Positions 3,452 through 46,325 of a stretch of 64,000 nucleotides of DNA are shown here, piece after piece. The position numbers were made by a program, and so were the translations under genes. The notes under the pieces were generated by a model. That model did no database searches, had not been told where the DNA came from, and saw nothing but the letters and a program-made list of their open reading frames with translations. Within the stretch, counting starts at the first letter, position 1. Each line of letters opens with the position of its first letter. This DNA is from an uncultured Gammaproteobacteria bacterium (lineage in GTDB: Bacteria; Patescibacteriota; Microgenomatia; 0-14-0-10-38-17). The DNA lies in the NCBI GenBank assembly GCA_964348895.1, contig CAYGEH010000001.1, positions 6,676 through 70,675 on the forward strand. Direction: 5' to 3'.

Positions 3452-4135
3452 CTAGGGATATAAAAGATAAGATTGACCAGAAAACTCCTTTAGAGGGCTG
3501 TCTTTTCTTCCAGCAAGAAGAGTGCCAATGTTTCTTCCGCAATCAAATAAGGAAACAACCCTTAAGCGTGAAGAAAACAAATTACGATATTGTTCTTCTG
3601 AGCGATAATAAATAGGGGTACGGTTTCTTATTTTACCCATAAAATTATCAAGGGGAACTGTTTGACTAAGGAAAGGGAGGCGAAAAGAGCTAACCACTAG
3701 GCCATTTCTTGTTAAAACCCTGTTTGTTTGTTCAAGAAAAAGATTAACTTGTTCGTCATCCATAAACATTGTTGTTCCGTCTAGAAAAATTAAATCCAAA
3801 GAATTACTGTGGAAGGGTAGTTTAGTTAGATCGGCCTGAATAAAACTAACCCCTTTTTGATTATAAATATTAAAAAAGGATCTTCTCATGGGGGCCTCAT
3901 TAAAATCAAGCAAGAAAAATTTATCTTGATAGTTTGGTCTTAAGGTTTGGCAATATTTAACAAAACTAGAAGCAGTTTGAGTTTGAGGTGAAAATCCACC
4001 TAAGACTAAATTAAGACTTTTTCCATCGGGAAAAGCAGGTCCATTTCTATTTTCAAAAATTCTTTTTAAGAGGTCATAGCCAAATTGGACACAAAAAGAC
4101 TCAGGAACAGTTCTATAATATTCAGACCAACCCAC
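3452..4135 (-). CDS. Putative class I SAM-dependent methyltransferase
   Basis: LVLGGF (glycine-rich motif I-like), acidic loop ADLTKLPF, and SLDLIFLDGTTMFM (motif II/III-like); soluble; embedded in the glycan locus. Confidence 0.45.
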   Translation of the reverse strand: MGWSEYYRTVPESFCVQFGYDLLKRIFENRNGPAFPDGKSLNLVLGGFSPQTQTASSFVKYCQTLRPNYQDKFFLLDFNEAPMRRSFFNIYNQKGVSFIQADLTKLPFHSNSLDLIFLDGTTMFMDDEQVNLFLEQTNRVLTRNGLVVSSFRLPFLSQTVPLDNFMGKIRNRTPIYYRSEEQYRNLFSSRLRVVSLFDCGRNIGTLLAGRKDSPLKEFSGQSYLLYP

Positions 4136-4185
4136 TTTTAAAAGATAAAATATTAAATAATTGTGTCTTTCATTTAAAAATTATT

Positions 4186-4701
4186 TTATTTTTTCATTTG
4201 ATAAGCCTGAAAGGAAAAACGATTAAAAAAGCGATAAATAAAAAAATAGGAATGCCGATTGCCAGCACAAACTAGCTGATCCCAAGACAGGTGAGCAAGA
4301 TAGGCAAGGCTGGTCCACTCTAGGCCGGCGATTCCCAGCCTGTTGCCCCAAGAGCGAAGGAGGAGCCAAAACAGAGGAACTAACTCCCAACCATGAAAAG
4401 GAACAAAAACCTTTTGATTTTTAACAACATAAGCTTTAGGAGATAAAAAGCTTTTTAAATGAAAGATTGGATCAAACCAAAGTTTTTTTTTAACAAAAAG
4501 GCGGTTTTTTGAAAAATAATATAAATAATCAACGATATGGTCGAAGTCGATTAAGAAGCCCATTAAAAGAGAAAAAGCGATTAGCCAAGGAGAAGAGAAA
4601 ACAATCATCAAAACAAAGCCTATTATCAAGGAAAGAAAGAAGTGAACACCCTCATCAACCAACAGTTTATCCAATCCTAGAGACTGGCCAATGTTTTTCA
4701 T
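4186..4701 (-). CDS. Hypothetical polytopic membrane protein with several conserved His (possibly a membrane-bound metal-dependent hydrolase)
   Basis: 171 aa, 3-4 TM helices, His-containing segments DFDHIVDY, PFHGWE, LAHLSWD; family not resolved. Confidence 0.3.
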   Translation of the reverse strand: MKNIGQSLGLDKLLVDEGVHFFLSLIIGFVLMIVFSSPWLIAFSLLMGFLIDFDHIVDYLYYFSKNRLFVKKKLWFDPIFHLKSFLSPKAYVVKNQKVFVPFHGWELVPLFWLLLRSWGNRLGIAGLEWTSLAYLAHLSWDQLVCAGNRHSYFFIYRFFNRFSFQAYQMKK

Positions 4702-4746
4702 TTTGATTTAGGCATTATCTTATCATCTCAAGAATTAAAGCGCCAA

Positions 4747-40045: not shown

Positions 40046-40491
40046 TCTTTTTTTAAAATGCTAATTTTCCGACTTTTTTCTTTTTTACAATACTCAAAGT
40101 ATATCTCAATTCTTTGTTTGGGTAAAACCCCTAGACCTCTGTCTGCCCATTCAATGGCAACAATGTTTTCTTGACTGAAAATCTCTTCTAGCCCTAAGGC
40201 CACTAACTGTTGTTGGGTATCAATACGATACCAGTCAAGATGAAAAAAACGACCACTTTGATTTTTAAGAAAATAATCCCGAATAACAATAAAGGTTGGG
40301 CTTAAAACTCTTTCTTTTATTCCTAACCCCTCTGCCACTCCCTGTAAAAATGTGGTTTTGCCTCCCCCTAAGTCTCCAAATAAAGCCAAAACCACCCCTG
40401 GTTTTAAATCAGTGCCAATTTTTCGGCCCAAACTCTTAGTTTCTTGGGCGCTTTTGGTAAAATAATCCATAATAAAATTAAACCAAAACAA
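40042..40491 (-). CDS. tsaE: tRNA t6A biosynthesis ATPase TsaE (YjeE)
   Basis: FGDLGGGKTTF P-loop, SPTF, HLDWYR; the start probably lies downstream of the annotated Met (overlaps the VanZ-like gene). Confidence 0.85.
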   Translation of the reverse strand: MFWFNFIMDYFTKSAQETKSLGRKIGTDLKPGVVLALFGDLGGGKTTFLQGVAEGLGIKERVLSPTFIVIRDYFLKNQSGRFFHLDWYRIDTQQQLVALGLEEIFSQENIVAIEWADRGLGVLPKQRIEIYFEYCKKEKSRKISILKKE

Positions 40492-40838
40492 ATTCCTAAA
40501 GAGTCAATTAAAATATCTCTTAAGGTTCCACTTCTGGTGGGGACATAAAGTTGATGAATTTCGTCAATCACTGCCCAAAAAAAAGCAATTATTCCTGCAC
40601 CCCAGGCAGAAGAAAGTTTATTTTTAGTTATCGTCGTTTTGATGGCTCGATAAAGCAAAACAAAAAGAAGGGCGTATTCTAAAAAATGTAAACTTTTAAA
40701 AAAAATAAAGTTTTGCCAACCCCCAGAGCCAATAATAAAGGTGGGCCGAGAAGAAAGATAAAAAATTATCACCATTAGGACCATTGGTGGAAACCAATAA
40801 TTTAGCCAAAAAAGGGCTTTTTTCACTTTGCTTGTCAT
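40404..40838 (-). CDS. VanZ-like membrane protein
   Basis: IDEIHQLYVPTRSGTLRDILIDSLG matches the VanZ family core; 4 TM. Confidence 0.55.
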   Translation of the reverse strand: MTSKVKKALFWLNYWFPPMVLMVIIFYLSSRPTFIIGSGGWQNFIFFKSLHFLEYALLFVLLYRAIKTTITKNKLSSAWGAGIIAFFWAVIDEIHQLYVPTRSGTLRDILIDSLGICFGLILLWIILPKAPKKLRVWAEKLALI

Positions 40839-40882: not shown

Positions 40883-42178
40883 TTAAATTAAAAATTTTCG
40901 CCTAAAGATTCTTGTTAAGCCAAAACCAAAACTACCACCACCCCAAGAGAGTAATAACCAATCAGGAAGCCAATAATCAGAAACCCTATCAAGTCTTTTG
41001 CTTGCCAACAATAAAGACGGCAATTCTTTTTCTTCTTTTAAATAAGTTTTAAAAATTGGAGCTTTATTTAAATAAACATAAACAGAAGCTTCTTCGCCTA
41101 AAACATTATTTTCCTCTTTGGGGGTTTTTAGAGCTGGGGGTTGAGTTATTTTGCTTAAAACTGGCGAGGATATTGTCGGTGTTATCCTGGAAGCAGAACA
41201 GGGCAAGTTCTGCTGACCAGGAGTGGCCTCCTGAAAACACCAACTATTAGATTGTTTACCCCAACCCTGGCTTGACTCTGTTTTGGGATAAACCAAAAAG
41301 TCTTTTGGTTCTCCCAAAGAATCTGTTAACCTTACTTCGTCCCCAGCGTTGTTAAGCATGGTCTTGCCCAGACTAACCACCCCATAGCTATTGGCTTCTA
41401 TTATAAGAGAAAATTTCCATGGATTACTCCCCCCTTCAGCCAAATCATCAATTAACCAATTAACTAAGTTAATCTTAAAATCGTTATCGTTATATAATTC
41501 TACCCACTCAGGTCCTTCTTGGGGATCGGCCATGACTTCGTTAAGAAAAATTTTATTATAGTTTTGAGTTGGACTAGTAGGATTGGGGGTTGGGGTGGGC
41601 AAGATTGTTGGTGTTTCGGTTGGGGTTGGAAGCAGCGAAGGGTTAATTGTTGGCGAAATTGTTGGTGAAGGCGACGGCAGAACGGCAGTTGGCGAAACAC
41701 TTGGGAGAGGAACAATGGTGGGAAAAAAACAAGCCTCATCTTGAGGGGTTGGCACTAAAAACACTTGCCAAAGATTAGCCCCATTTGAAACTCTTCCCGT
41801 AGATTGATTAAGCAGGTGGGCAGGGACAAGGTCAGAGAAATAAACTATTCTATTAACCTCATTACTGCTGTTATCAATTAATCTAATTTCATCACCACCA
41901 TTATTGAGTCGATTAGAAAAATCAAACTTTCTAAAAGAATTGGGACAAATTATTCCTTCTAGATTTATTTTGTTCGTTTGGGTTTCATCACGAAGCTCCC
42001 AGCCGTCAAGGTTAATAATTTCTTCTCCTAAATTATAAAGTTCAACCCAATCGGGAGAAGATAAGGCTGAAAATTCATTAATAACTACCCCTTGGGCCCA
42101 AACTAGAAAATGTCCTCTATTCCAAAATAAAAATATCGCCAAATTAATCAGAAAAAAGAAAAGCTTTTTAATTAACAT
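40883..42178 (-). CDS. Secreted protein with two lamin-tail (LTD) domains separated by a Pro/Thr-rich linker
   Basis: VVINEFSALSSPDWVELYN...LDGWEL and IFLNEVMADPQEGPEWVELYN...LVNWLI (LTD signature twice); linker PTISPTINPSLLPTPTETPTILPTPTPNPT; N-terminal signal/TM. Confidence 0.55.
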   Translation of the reverse strand: MLIKKLFFFLINLAIFLFWNRGHFLVWAQGVVINEFSALSSPDWVELYNLGEEIINLDGWELRDETQTNKINLEGIICPNSFRKFDFSNRLNNGGDEIRLIDNSSNEVNRIVYFSDLVPAHLLNQSTGRVSNGANLWQVFLVPTPQDEACFFPTIVPLPSVSPTAVLPSPSPTISPTINPSLLPTPTETPTILPTPTPNPTSPTQNYNKIFLNEVMADPQEGPEWVELYNDNDFKINLVNWLIDDLAEGGSNPWKFSLIIEANSYGVVSLGKTMLNNAGDEVRLTDSLGEPKDFLVYPKTESSQGWGKQSNSWCFQEATPGQQNLPCSASRITPTISSPVLSKITQPPALKTPKEENNVLGEEASVYVYLNKAPIFKTYLKEEKELPSLLLASKRLDRVSDYWLPDWLLLSWGGGSFGFGLTRIFRRKFLI

Positions 42179-42453: not shown

Positions 42454-42930
42454 ATGAAAGAAATAGAAAGCAGCAAAAGCTATTGTCAAAGGGTAAAAGA
42501 AAAATTTTTTCTTGAAATTTTTTTAGCCTTGTCAATAAGTTCTTTTGAAAAAATGAAAATAAAAGAACGGCTTAGTCTTAACGACGAAGAACAAGAGCTT
42601 GCTACTATTTTTCTAGCCGAAAGAATTACTCTGGCCTATCAATATTTTTTGCAAAGAAAAAATACTAAACGCCCTTTCTTGCCCCAAGCTGATTATTCTT
42701 CCCAAGTTTTTCAAAAAGCTCCTGAAATGATAACAGCAGGAGAAGAAACAAGACTAAGAAGACAGACAATTTATTTAGCAATTAACGACCTTAGTGCTAA
42801 CATTAATCACAATAATGATCAACAAAAATTAGACCTAATCCTCTATTTTGCTAATTATCAACTGAGAGACTTTGAGCTTGATCAATGGGGAGAAAAATGG
42901 CAAAGAAAACTTAAAAATCAACCCAATTAA
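42454..42930 (+). CDS. Hypothetical protein
   Basis: 158-aa ORF, no recognised motifs. Confidence 0.3.
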   Translation: MKEIESSKSYCQRVKEKFFLEIFLALSISSFEKMKIKERLSLNDEEQELATIFLAERITLAYQYFLQRKNTKRPFLPQADYSSQVFQKAPEMITAGEETRLRRQTIYLAINDLSANINHNNDQQKLDLILYFANYQLRDFELDQWGEKWQRKLKNQPN

Positions 42931-42963: not shown

Positions 42964-44154
42964 TTAGATCCTAGCATAGTTAACATGAAGATAGAGGGTG
43001 GAAAAATTTGAGTTTTCGTGATCTACCTTTACATACCTCAGTGTTCCTCCACCACAGGGGATGCTACCATTGTAAAGAGTTCCCCCTTGAACAGCCAAAA
43101 CAGACAAGTCTTCGGCCACAATATCAATACCCGAATGAAATTCATACCAAGAACCACCACTAGTAATCCACCAGGTGTCACCGCCAAACCCTTGGGTTAA
43201 CCGAATCGTTCCCGAAAGAGGCCAGGGCCAATCGCCACCAAAATGATATGAGTCTCCCCCAGAGCGATTATCAATTCTGGCCGACCTCAGGTAGTCAAGG
43301 GGGTTTCTGACCATATTCCCCTCCCTCACTTCGAAATGTAAGTGAGTACCAGTAGAACAAGCGGATTGGCCAACAATAACTGAAGCAATTCTTTCCCCTT
43401 GTCTAATCTCGCCAACCCTAACCTCTCTTCCTCTTCCTGCAATAATAGCCTGAATTGCTTGGTACTCAGCCCTAGCGGCTGACAACATCGCCTGATAACG
43501 GTTCTCGTCATTTTGAGTAACTGTTAATAGGCGTTCTTTACCTATTTTTTGTCGAGCCAAAACAGCATTCTGTTCTTCAAGTTGAGTTCTTAGTCTTTCT
43601 AGGGCCGCCTGTTTTTCTTCTTTAAGATTTTTTTGGCGATCAAAGTCCTGTTTGGCCTCTTCAATCGCAATCATTAACATTCTGTCATGCTTTTGGGCCA
43701 CTCTTAAATACTGTTGATTTCTAATAAAATCCTCTGCATTTTCGGCAGTCAACCAATAGAAACTTGGATCAATTTGGCTTCCTTTATAGCTCGCTACAAT
43801 TCGACGTAATAAAATTTTAGAAATTTTATCTAAAGATAGGTCTAATTTGCTAATTTTTTCTGACAAAGAGGAAATTTCTTCTTCTAAAACCACAACACTA
43901 GCCTTGGTTTGGGTGATTCTTAGGGTGGCCAGTTGAATTTGCTGGTTCATCTGAACGACTTGAGAAGAAAGAGTTCGTCGCTGCTCTCTTGTTTGTGACA
44001 CCTTTTCTTCTAGTTCTTTAATTTCTCTTTGGATCCTTTCTAGGTCTTCTCCAACAACTGCTTCGGGTAAGGAGGGGGGGCGACTAAAACTAAAGGCTGC
44101 CAACAAAAACAATAATAATAAAAGAATAACAAGGTTCTTTTTCATCATCATCAA
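42964..44154 (-). CDS. Coiled-coil M23 (LytM-type) metallopeptidase, EnvC-like partner of FtsEX; M23 domain apparently circularly permuted
   Basis: Signal/TM, about 200-aa heptad-rich region, then GQSACSTGTHLHFEVREGNMVRNPLDYL (M23 C-terminal motif) preceding WYEFHSGIDIV...VKVDHENSNFSTLYLHV (M23 N-terminal motif); last gene of the ftsE-ftsX operon. Confidence 0.8.
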   Translation of the reverse strand: MMMMKKNLVILLLLLFLLAAFSFSRPPSLPEAVVGEDLERIQREIKELEEKVSQTREQRRTLSSQVVQMNQQIQLATLRITQTKASVVVLEEEISSLSEKISKLDLSLDKISKILLRRIVASYKGSQIDPSFYWLTAENAEDFIRNQQYLRVAQKHDRMLMIAIEEAKQDFDRQKNLKEEKQAALERLRTQLEEQNAVLARQKIGKERLLTVTQNDENRYQAMLSAARAEYQAIQAIIAGRGREVRVGEIRQGERIASVIVGQSACSTGTHLHFEVREGNMVRNPLDYLRSARIDNRSGGDSYHFGGDWPWPLSGTIRLTQGFGGDTWWITSGGSWYEFHSGIDIVAEDLSVLAVQGGTLYNGSIPCGGGTLRYVKVDHENSNFSTLYLHVNYARI

Positions 44155-44167
44155 CCGCTAAAAGTAT

Positions 44168-45061
44168 TTACCTTAGATAACGACGAGTGGCGATATAACT
44201 GCCTAAGCCACAAATTAAGGAGGAAAAAAGAGTGAGTCCCCCCAAAAGAATTAGTAAAAACTCTTGAGAAATTGGAAAAACACCAATATCGGCAAAAAAA
44301 GAAAAGTCGATTAGAGTTTTCCCTAATTGAGACAGGGCAAGATACATTCCTCCAAAACCAAGAAATGTTCCTAAAACGCCGTAAATTATTCCTTCTACTA
44401 AAAAAGGTGATCGAGCCTGCCAAGAAGAAGCCCCTAAGAGTTTTAAAATTTCTACTTCGTCTTTCCTTAGGGCAATTTTCATTGAAGTAATGACAACCAT
44501 CAACAGCAATGTTTGCGAAATCAACAATATTCCTCCTCCTATTCCTACCTGTCTTATTGCCTTCGTCCACTCTTTTAACGACTCAGCAATATTTTCTGCA
44601 AAATCAATTTCTTTCCGACCCCCCTCAGAAACAGAAACAATTTCTTCCTTGGTTAGAATATCAGCGATTTCTTTTAAGTATTCAATTTTAAGCGCAGACA
44701 CCTCAATGCTGGCCGGCAAAATTTCTGCTGTAACCATTTCCAATAAGAGTGGACTATCTTTATTAGCCTCCTGATAAATTTTTAAGGCATCCTCTTTAGA
44801 AACATAAATGATTTCTTCGACCATGCCAGTATTTTTTAGTCTAAGAATCAAATCATCAACCTCTTCTTGTTCGGCAGAATCCTTTAAATAAGCGATCACT
44901 TGAGGTTGGGCTTCAAAAAAAATCAAAACCCGTTGAGAAACAAAGGAAAGGGTCGCAAAAGAAGAAATTAAAAAAAAAGCAAAACCCAAAACCATCACCA
45001 CTAAAAACGACTGATATGGTGACCGAATAATGTGGTTAAGGGCAACTTTTATTGTTTTCAT
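44168..45061 (-). CDS. ftsX: Cell-division ABC transporter permease FtsX
   Basis: TM1, then a large extracytoplasmic loop, then 3 C-terminal TM; start overlaps the ftsE stop (TAATG). Confidence 0.8.
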   Translation of the reverse strand: MKTIKVALNHIIRSPYQSFLVVMVLGFAFFLISSFATLSFVSQRVLIFFEAQPQVIAYLKDSAEQEEVDDLILRLKNTGMVEEIIYVSKEDALKIYQEANKDSPLLLEMVTAEILPASIEVSALKIEYLKEIADILTKEEIVSVSEGGRKEIDFAENIAESLKEWTKAIRQVGIGGGILLISQTLLLMVVITSMKIALRKDEVEILKLLGASSWQARSPFLVEGIIYGVLGTFLGFGGMYLALSQLGKTLIDFSFFADIGVFPISQEFLLILLGGLTLFSSLICGLGSYIATRRYLR

Positions 45062-45782: not shown

Positions 45783-46325
45783 TTAATCTAACACTTTTAG
45801 TTTACCAACATCCATTAACCAACCTGCTTTTTCTGCACTAAAAGTTTCTCCCCAAACCTCAACCCTGCGACCAACAAAAGAATTCAAATCTAAAACTGAA
45901 GAAAATAAGAAAACTGTTTGAAATGGACCTCCCTCTCTTATAAGGTGGTGTGTTCCTTCACCGTTAACGCCTCCTTCGGCAACTTCACCAACAGCATTAT
46001 CAGAAAAAACATTCTTATCTTGTACTCCAAACTCTTCTCCTTTTTGAGGTTGCTGGCCTTCGCTAACTTCAAGTAAAAGCGGTTTTTGATTAAAAGCCGG
46101 ACCTCTGGCCAACAATCGACCAGAAAACACCCCTAAACCAACAATTACTAACAAAACAACAGCTGTCATTAAATTTCTCTTGGGGGAAAAGCTTTTTGAG
46201 AAAATAAGCGCCTTCTCCTCGAGTGGCCAAGAGGGAGAACTTGTGATTCTTTTAGATTGATCTTTATTAAGATTAATTTCTTCAATCATTAGAGTTAGTT
46301 TAAAGCTAGGATCACTATAGCACAA
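45783..46325 (-). CDS. Hypothetical single-TM protein
   Basis: 180 aa, one hydrophobic helix (AVVLLVIVGLGVF); sits between prfB and ftsE. Confidence 0.3.
   Translation of the reverse strand: MCYSDPSFKLTLMIEEINLNKDQSKRITSSPSWPLEEKALIFSKSFSPKRNLMTAVVLLVIVGLGVFSGRLLARGPAFNQKPLLLEVSEGQQPQKGEEFGVQDKNVFSDNAVGEVAEGGVNGEGTHHLIREGGPFQTVFLFSSVLDLNSFVGRRVEVWGETFSAEKAGWLMDVGKLKVLD

Follow-up and report, generated by a model that had tools for sequence, protein, structure and literature searches.

The gene that follows ftsE and ftsX in a 64,000-nucleotide stretch of contig CAYGEH010000001.1 (assembly GCA_964348895.1, positions 6,676 to 70,675; that whole stretch is referred to below as the window) encodes a coiled-coil protein of 396 amino acids that ends in a circularly permuted M23/LytM metallopeptidase domain. 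The record is titled as an uncultured Gammaproteobacteria bacterium and is placed by GTDB in the Microgenomatia of the Patescibacteriota. Our analysis confirmed that the order of the domain is truly reversed, with the part that canonically closes an M23 domain standing first and the part that canonically opens it standing last, and revealed that a large family has this permuted order as its conserved condition. We consider it likely that the protein is an FtsEX partner in which an EnvC-type coiled coil and an arm helix are joined to a permuted M23 domain, and that it acts as an FtsEX-gated, directly active septal peptidoglycan endopeptidase, its activity and zinc geometry being predicted.

The M23 motifs occur in reversed order

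An earlier reading of the DNA made from its letters only (hereafter the sequence-only reading) had placed an apparently permuted, catalytically intact M23 domain at positions 42964–43452 of the reverse strand. This interval corresponds to residues 235–396 (162 codons) and the stop codon of the 396-residue open reading frame (ORF), and the motifs quoted in that reading are all present, with its numbering off by 1–3 residues: VGQSACSTGTHLHFEVREGNMVRNPLDYL spans residues 261–289, WPLSG... starts at residue 311 and ...STLYLHV runs to residue 391. When the Pfam M23 profile PF01551 was run on the protein, two stretches were matched in reversed order, as the sequence-only reading had anticipated, with a summed score of 39.1 bits (gathering cut-off 28.7). 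Scored alone, residues 236–296 matched profile positions 62–96 (24.2 bits) and residues 297–396 matched positions 2–54 (21.8 bits), each score being below the cut-off. When the two halves were rejoined in silico in the canonical order, a single stretch covering positions 2–96 of the 96 was obtained at 45.1 bits, which rose to 53.6 bits (E = 2.6e-14) after the junction was trimmed.

Similar results were obtained by direct comparison with canonical M23 proteins. Using phmmer, residues 333–392 of the window protein were aligned with residues 35–92 of the M23 peptidase chain 9gy1_A from the PDB, and residues 246–289 with residues 97–140 of the same chain; the family profile gave the same result. 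An hhalign comparison of 203 permuted domains with 43 canonical M23 domains, each set taken as found, returned two reversed matches (E = 6e-20, query columns 3–49 to template columns 108–153; E = 9e-17, columns 59–151 to columns 9–103), and de-permutation of the query resulted in one match of 133 columns (E = 1e-36). Because two reversed partial matches become one full-length match on re-ordering, the domain is circularly permuted. By homology of sequence, the protein is a non-colinear member of the M23 superfamily.

Along the chain the motifs come as HxH (residue 271), HxxxD (residue 340) and YxH (residue 390), and the colinear order HxxxD-YxH-HxH is not found. The cut lies in the loop after the YxH strand, at about Pfam positions 55–61, and the last ~50 residues of the canonical domain (a hairpin and HxH) now stand first, right after the Ala-rich arm helix. 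The chain ends 3–6 residues past the YxH strand, in agreement with the earlier claim that it stops where a canonical domain would go on.

Two candidates for a canonical remnant were considered and rejected. A hidden degenerate N-terminal half before residue 243 is incompatible with the AlphaFold2 (AF2) model, in which a helix runs to residue 238. A lost HxH beyond residue 393 was dismissed because a second HxH segment was found in none of the downstream reading frames, and a convergent ORF begins 34 nt past the stop codon. A second, canonical M23 domain was not found elsewhere in the window.

The permuted order is conserved across a large family

The sequence-only reading had suggested a search for orthologues in related Patescibacteria, and in these the permutation was kept; the arrangement is far outside anything that chance would produce. 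In the 120 best homologues (42–99% identity, ~380–430 amino acids), HxH precedes HxxxD and the chain ends 3–6 residues past Y-x-H in 120/120; four of these were flagged as 'canonical' by a regular expression, but only through a coincidental HxxxD within the coiled coil. Another deep clade (the second, or clade B), with proteins that end in ...GKMTLYLHLQ and with a domain that is only ~31–33% identical, had the permuted order in 111 of 114 members. Further, an exhaustive HMMER scan of 1.84 billion cluster representatives returned 97 at E < 1e-10, overwhelmingly as single-stretch, full-domain matches in proteins of ~400 amino acids, and a pattern scan of the GTDB species genomes revealed that a relative is encoded in 247 species. 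All taxonomically informative names belong to the Microgenomates group of Patescibacteria (Shapiro-, Pace-, Beckwith-, Woese-, Davies-, Levy-, Ames- and Gottesman-bacteria). Among the relatives with a name, the one closest to the window protein (76% identity) comes from 'Microgenomates bacterium 39_6'.

Many contigs with a Microgenomates-type operon (GTDB loci L007–L084; P0065 and P0289) are titled 'uncultured Gammaproteobacteria/Pseudomonadales bacterium', 'Candidatus Bathyarchaeia archaeon', 'candidate division TM6' or 'Clostridia bacterium'. Such titles are probably placeholders or mis-binned records and are unfit for inferring distribution. The public labels of family members also vary, from 'hypothetical' through 'CwlO-like' and 'EnvC family' to 'DD-metalloendopeptidase family'.

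The permuted-M23 gene is linked to ftsEX

The FtsEX coupling claimed in the sequence-only reading was borne out as an operon link. In the window, ftsE and ftsX abut (position 45061 is common to both) and the co-oriented peptidase gene starts 13 nt downstream of ftsX. Among 87 related loci, ftsX immediately precedes the peptidase gene in 81, and ftsE lies upstream on the same strand in 80. The exceptions include three contigs that are too short to show the linkage and, as a fourth, the locus of the giant protein P0179 (see below). The recurring synteny is prfB, a small membrane protein, ftsE, ftsX, the permuted-M23 gene, a lamin-tail domain (LTD) protein and VanZ. In one Candidatus Amesbacteria locus (L085, DNMO01000006.1), the gene at 4001–4735 is annotated as a protein of 244 amino acids (P0188), and tblastn with the window protein extended the match to position 3707, near the end of ftsX; the N-terminus of P0188 was probably truncated by the gene call.

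The region in front of the peptidase domain resembles EnvC. In EnvC, two long helices form a hairpin and are connected by a helix of six residues between two FtsX-binding sites; a restraining arm that blocks the groove of the LytM domain comes next. The AF2 helix pattern of the window protein (long helix, 7-residue tip, long helix, 22-residue arm) matches this description (PMC7668044). The best Foldseek matches of the full-length model were the Vibrio cholerae FtsEX-EnvC complex (8tzl_E) and Escherichia coli EnvC-FtsX (6tpi_A), followed by RipC and PcsB. Positions 24–243 of the family profile were aligned with residues 31–248 of E. coli EnvC (8hd0_E) at E = 3.7e-15, and family members matched the CC_PcsB model (PF24568). 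The NCBIfam equivalog model of EnvC, NF008644, scored 41.8 bits against a cut-off of 270, and on the coiled-coil part only.

The arm helix, with its Glu in an E-x-Q-A-I motif, is conserved, and giant proteins that have the permuted domain at their C-terminus (P0179 and P0231) keep this helix as well. The permuted module was found at or near the C-terminus of four very large proteins outside the ftsEX context: P0179 (1256 amino acids; locus L086), P0215 (2174 amino acids), P0231 (894 amino acids) and the cluster member P0270 (2492 amino acids). As the module recurs at the C-terminus of these proteins of 894–2492 amino acids, it behaves as a self-contained domain. P0231 carries a Cys-rich tail of ~60 residues past the usual domain end, and the end of the domain is thus not always the end of the protein. 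Three close relatives of clade B (P0329, P0387 and P0392) have the same coiled coil (72–84% identity to P0108 over 60% of its length) and, in place of M23, a Cys...His domain with weak, sub-threshold matches to Peptidase_C39-like and C70 (papain-like) models. These sequences suggest that one catalytic domain was exchanged for another on the FtsEX scaffold, and they favour the reading of this position as an 'enzyme slot'.

Catalytic residues and predicted function

In M23 peptidases, zinc is bound by both the His and the Asp of the H(x)nD motif and by the second His in HxH, and the first His of HxH activates water together with a His ~30 residues upstream of HxH (LytM His260) (PMC9662197). The sequence-only reading had stated that all four zinc ligands are retained; H340, D344, H271 and H273 are indeed all kept, but by this scheme the zinc ligands number three, the first His of HxH being catalytic. 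In an alignment of 85 sequences, H271, H273, H340, D344 and H390 were invariant, and among 312 permuted sequences from both clades H390 was conserved in 99% and E230 of the arm helix in 98%, H390 not having been a selection criterion. H390, in YLHV, aligns with the YaH of the profile; it stands 6 residues short of the C-terminus and follows HxH by 117 residues instead of preceding it by ~30.

By analogy with EnvC, PcsB, CwlO and RipC, the extracellular domains of FtsX would grip the tip of the coiled coil, binding of ATP by FtsE would reshape the coil and free the catalytic groove from the arm helix, and the M23 domain would then itself cut the peptide cross-links of septal peptidoglycan, without activation of an amidase. 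Several points weigh against this reading. First, the permuted-M23 gene stands away from ftsEX in two loci (L080 and L081). Second, the offset of the oxyanion Tyr (LytM Tyr204) is not fixed, as Y337 lies 3 residues before H340 compared with 5 in the family consensus. Third, the preference for direct hydrolysis over amidase activation is drawn from the conservation of residues. Fourth, the geometry of the zinc site, the C266–C367 distance and the placement of the arm helix relative to the groove are predictions. Finally, mutual information with average product correction (312 sequences) puts many pairs between the two halves of the domain among its top 30, but this signal is confounded by the two-clade split, and we have discounted these couplings as evidence of contact for that reason.

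Alternatively, the protein could be a non-catalytic, EnvC-like adaptor that activates a separate amidase or hydrolase, with its His and Asp residues serving in structure or binding. Its coiled coil is homologous to that of EnvC, one member carries the NCBI name 'murein hydrolase activator EnvC family protein', the oxyanion Tyr is variable in its position and the hydrolytic activity of the family is a prediction from sequence, all of which would suit an adaptor. However, the LytM-type activators EnvC and NlpD have lost their catalytic and zinc residues (PMC9662197; PMC7668044), whereas all five residues are (nearly) invariant here across two deep clades at ~31–33% domain identity. Further, the papain-like Cys-peptidase-type domain (sub-threshold Pfam matches) that close relatives of clade B have in the place of M23 fits a slot for an enzyme, as in PcsB, CwlO and RipC. 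We regard the adaptor as improbable and retain the direct septal hydrolase.

How such a hydrolase might be held in check is suggested by the position of the arm helix, which enters the HxH hairpin/strand through a 4-residue turn, with the new ends of the chain beside H390. From its conservation, E230 of the arm helix may be a zinc-capping or autoinhibitory element; in latent LytM, Asn117 is the latency cap with which E230 can be compared. We also entertain, as a rather unlikely case, a different gating brought by the permutation, in which movement of the coil seats or unseats part of the active site or withdraws E230 from zinc as a latency cap. This would be an active-site-assembly switch as opposed to the unblocking of the groove in EnvC.

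Fold of the permuted domain and the cysteine pairs

When residues 236–396 were modelled alone, AF2 gave a predicted local distance difference test score (pLDDT) of 94.0 and a predicted template modelling score (pTM) of 0.90, with both segments at pLDDT 95–98. From conservation, the AF2 models and the covariation of Cys residues, we infer that the two pieces fold into one ordinary M23 sandwich, which would rebuild the zinc site (H340, D344 and H273) and the catalytic pair (H271 and H390). That the halves would assemble is argued by the fact that each carries part of the site and neither is complete, while the two are jointly conserved over this depth. A Foldseek search of the domain against the BFVD viral library returned no significant match, and the search of the full-length model against the PDB was dominated by the coiled coil and is uninformative on the M23 topology.

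Two arrangements of Cys residues accompany the permutation in the clade of the window protein. In ~150 sequences, a Cys 5 residues before HxH (C266 in the window protein) is paired with a Cys 22–23 residues before the terminal His (C367), and in ~30 sequences the first Cys is at −6 before HxH and the second at −19 or −20 before the terminal His; both pairs occur in two sequences and neither pair in two others. At the first position, Cys is absent from the canonical relatives of the match set. In the second clade, exactly two Cys residues are present in 108 of 110 domains, at other sites, namely the new linker ('SCDD') and the strand with 'TQCYG'. From this pattern, the C266–C367 disulfide probably staples the two halves together in the clade of the window protein, and the pairs would more generally be disulfide staples that arose after the permutation, in what are phylogenetically few events.

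The two loci in which the gene stands away from ftsEX (L081:685-5413 and L080; GTDB contigs CAZFRF010000001.1 and CAYORA010000008.1) encode a permuted coiled-coil M23 protein with 43% domain identity and the Cys pair kept. Here the gene is downstream of genes for DsbD-like/cupredoxin, DsbB and DsbA-like thioredoxin proteins and upstream of a CDF cation/zinc efflux gene. This context, anecdotal as it comes from two loci, suggests a fit with a disulfide-bonded zinc enzyme.

A further possibility is that the halves complement each other in trans, in a domain-swapped dimer or oligomer, so that the enzyme would be active only after dimerisation. Complementation between molecules is possible for circular permutants and half-domains, PcsB was crystallised as a dimer (4cgk, among the Foldseek matches), and the packing within one chain is here a prediction from model confidence. 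Yet the AF2 monomer is one confident domain by its pTM, a single EnvC molecule binds the FtsX dimer (PMC7668044), and the module also occurs as the single C-terminal domain of giant proteins. In addition, the 19-residue linker and the spacing of 69 residues from HxH to HxxxD match the junction of natural tandem M23-M23 proteins (~66). Assembly in trans is very improbable on this evidence, and assembly within one chain is preferred.

Lastly, the chance that a canonical M23 gene was scrambled in this contig by misassembly or a frameshift, a concern raised in the sequence-only reading, is close to nil and was rejected on cross-genome conservation, because the same order, end point and length (~390–400 amino acids) recur in the 120/120 and 111/114 homologues from independent metagenomes and metagenome-assembled genomes and in independent assemblies of the 247 GTDB species, and because the ORF is unbroken, is modelled at pLDDT 93 and has no second HxH in its downstream frames.

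Origin of the permutation

Most likely, a single event in an ancestor of the Microgenomates group gave rise to the permutation, starting from a canonical coiled-coil M23 protein like those encoded after ftsEX in Clostridia. Among proteins with the canonical order, those that score highest against the permuted domain have a coiled coil and M23, a length of 386–396 amino acids and intact motifs, and two Clostridia examples were confirmed to be encoded directly after ftsE-ftsX. Further, the lead-in 'D[ST]Y..GGxWxWP' is common to the canonical Clostridia proteins and, after the new linker, to the permuted proteins.

Tandem M23-M23 proteins with both sets of motifs also occur (P0198, P0202, P0220, P0224, P0226, P0235 and P0247; Clostridia/Oscillospiraceae where named) and are not FtsEX partners. 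The permuted query aligns with these in a single stretch that crosses the junction of their domains, where HxH and HxxxD are ~66 residues apart compared with 69 in the window protein. The existence of natural tandem proteins that match in this way makes duplication followed by loss of the outer pieces feasible, and the route of tandem duplication and terminal truncation proposed in the sequence-only reading is plausible to that extent; no intermediate was found in the lineage, however, when Patescibacteria were searched for a coiled coil combined with two M23 domains or with one and a half. The same product would result from a direct transposition of the 3' segment.

Relation to known systems

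EnvC (E. coli, V. cholerae and Pseudomonas aeruginosa; PDB 6TPI, 8TZL and 8HD0) shares with the permuted protein a gene position after ftsEX, a coiled-coil hairpin with a tip helix, a helix before the domain in the place of the restraining arm and, as predicted for the permuted protein, a signal sequence and a C-terminal M23 fold. It differs in that its LytM domain has the canonical order and has lost the catalytic residues, and in that it activates AmiA/AmiB, whereas the permuted family keeps all five residues; its arm is also longer (~50 residues compared with ~22). The sequence-only reading had set the protein apart from degenerate EnvC. The residues are indeed intact here, but FtsEX-linked coiled-coil M23 proteins with intact motifs are not unusual, as canonical versions follow ftsEX in Clostridia. 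These Clostridia proteins (MBP3415630.1, which is P0272, and P0271; both uncharacterised) are alike in operon position, length (386–395 amino acids), CC_PcsB coil (PF24568) and intact HxxxD, YxH and HxH motifs. Unlike the permuted proteins, they have the order HxxxD, YxH, HxH, end ~20 residues later and lack a Cys pair at the positions of the permuted family.

PcsB of Streptococcus pneumoniae, CwlO of Bacillus subtilis and RipC of Mycobacterium tuberculosis, from monoderm and mycolate bacteria, have a coiled coil gripped by FtsX and an active C-terminal hydrolase that is autoinhibited until FtsEX acts, a mechanism that is predicted to be shared (PMC7668044), but for catalysis they carry cysteine peptidases of the CHAP or NlpC/P60 type in place of an M23 metallopeptidase. 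LytM, lysostaphin and StM23, which are M23B peptidoglycan endopeptidases (PDB 2B0P, 4ZYB, 4LXC and 9GY1), are also among the closest known systems. A precedent for whole families of cell-wall hydrolases with a swapped order of catalytic residues is provided by the circularly permuted NlpC/P60 proteins (YaeF/poxvirus G6R, LRAT-like; PMC6403190), although these have another fold and another chemistry, that of a papain-like Cys peptidase.

From these comparisons, what would be new is the topology only, i.e. the circular permutation of M23, as FtsEX-coupled coiled-coil hydrolases and intact M23 domains in that slot were already known. The 2022 review "One fold, many functions" defines M23 by HxxxD followed by HxH. 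We found no description of a permuted M23/LytM domain in the literature searched, which covered few subscription journals, so that an earlier mention is possible, nor in the M23 review PMC9662197; the one account of circular permutation that came up dealt with NlpC/P60. No curated Pfam or NCBIfam model spans the permuted domain in one piece.

Few families of cell-wall hydrolases and enzybiotic scaffolds have been studied as much as M23/LytM, whose members are regarded as having one colinear fold. This natural permutant, which is ancient and has been successful in evolution, shows that the fold tolerates new termini in the loop that follows the YxH strand and that ~19 residues can bridge the old ones, which is useful for the engineering of lysins and biosensors. 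It also explains the weak or 'faint' M23 calls for the FtsEX partner, and the mixed labels, across a whole class of Patescibacteria, for which a dedicated annotation model is needed. Further, it provides a natural experiment on mechanotransmission by FtsEX, as the same coil and arm are wired to a different strand, and canonical (Clostridia) and permuted (Microgenomates) proteins can be compared. If the sequences are a guide, ultra-small, host-dependent bacteria keep a dedicated and apparently active septal endopeptidase under FtsEX control.

Features of the operon and neighbouring genes

The coordinates of the genes and protein parts are given in Table 1. The start codon of the peptidase gene is TTG and is uncertain by 1–3 codons because of ATG codons directly after it; P0001, which is 99% identical to the window protein, has 393 amino acids.

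Table 1. Genes of the ftsEX operon and parts of the permuted-M23 protein, with positions in the window.
Feature	Position	Strand	Basis
ftsE, ABC ATPase, 234 amino acids	45061..45765	−	PF00005, E = 4.8e-34
ftsX, 297 amino acids, with extracellular domain	44168..45061	−	PF18075 (FtsX_ECD), E = 1.7e-12; PF02687 (FtsX permease), E = 2.8e-12
Coiled-coil permuted-M23 gene, 396 amino acids and stop	42964..44154	−	AF2 full-length model, pLDDT 93.2, pTM 0.78
Putative signal peptide or membrane anchor, residues 1–25 (MMMMKKNLVILLLLLFLLAAFSFSR)	44080..44154	−	Reading of the sequence; AF2 helix 5–23
Long coiled-coil helix I, residues 31–126	43777..44064	−	AF2 helices 31–56 and 62–126; alignment of the family profile with E. 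coli EnvC
Short helix at the hairpin tip, residues 130–136; putative site of FtsX binding	43747..43767	−	AF2 helix 130–136
Long coiled-coil helix II, residues 140–213	43516..43737	−	AF2 helix 140–213; best Foldseek matches EnvC, RipC and PcsB
Ala-rich 'arm' helix, residues 217–238 (ENRYQAMLSAARAEYQAIQAII), with E230 (43465–43467); putatively autoinhibitory	43441..43506	−	AF2 helix 217–238; position of the EnvC restraining arm
Segment A, canonical C-terminal third of M23, residues 243–289 (v.vG..V..G..IA hairpin, CSTGTHLHFE, NP..YL)	43288..43428	−	Pfam positions 62–96; canonical HMM (hidden Markov model) 100–145; canonical-family profile 108–153
HxH motif, H271-L-H273 (H271 catalytic, H273 zinc ligand)	43336..43344	−	Invariant in 85-sequence alignment; roles from PMC9662197
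Linker from old C-terminus to old N-terminus, residues 290–308 (RSARIDNRSGGDSYHFGGD), 19 residues	43231..43287	−	Between the two Pfam stretches
Segment B, canonical N-terminal two-thirds of M23, residues 309–393 (WPWP...TQGFG, HSGID, ...YLHVNY)	42976..43230	−	Pfam positions 2–54
HxxxD motif, H340-S-G-I-D344 (zinc ligands)	43123..43137	−	Invariant in 85-sequence alignment; roles from PMC9662197
H390, catalytic His equivalent to LytM His260	42985..42987	−	Invariant in 85-sequence alignment
C266, first Cys of the family-specific pair, segment A	43357..43359	−	Position co-varies with C367; canonical relatives without Cys here
C367, second Cys of the pair, segment B; predicted inter-half disulfide	43054..43056	−	Co-varies with C266

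Between prfB and ftsE, the window encodes a protein of 180 amino acids (45783–46325, reverse strand) for which a single transmembrane helix is predicted and Pfam gives no match. In five other loci (L001, L002, L004, L085 and L087), the prfB-ftsE gap holds a comparable ORF, unannotated and of 132–177 amino acids, and this small protein may be an extra conserved member of the operon. On the other side of the peptidase gene, a convergent ORF of 158 amino acids without a Pfam match (42454–42930, forward strand) fills the 786-nt gap to the LTD-domain gene; as the LTD gene follows the peptidase gene directly in the syntenic loci L001 and L002, this ORF may be a lineage-specific insertion or spurious. 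The LTD protein itself (40883–42178, reverse strand; 431 amino acids) has two LTDs and a Pro/Thr-rich linker, and a VanZ-like protein is encoded at 40404–40838 on the same strand. The genes for the LTD and VanZ-like proteins follow the peptidase gene both here and in distant relatives, forming a conserved envelope gene cluster.

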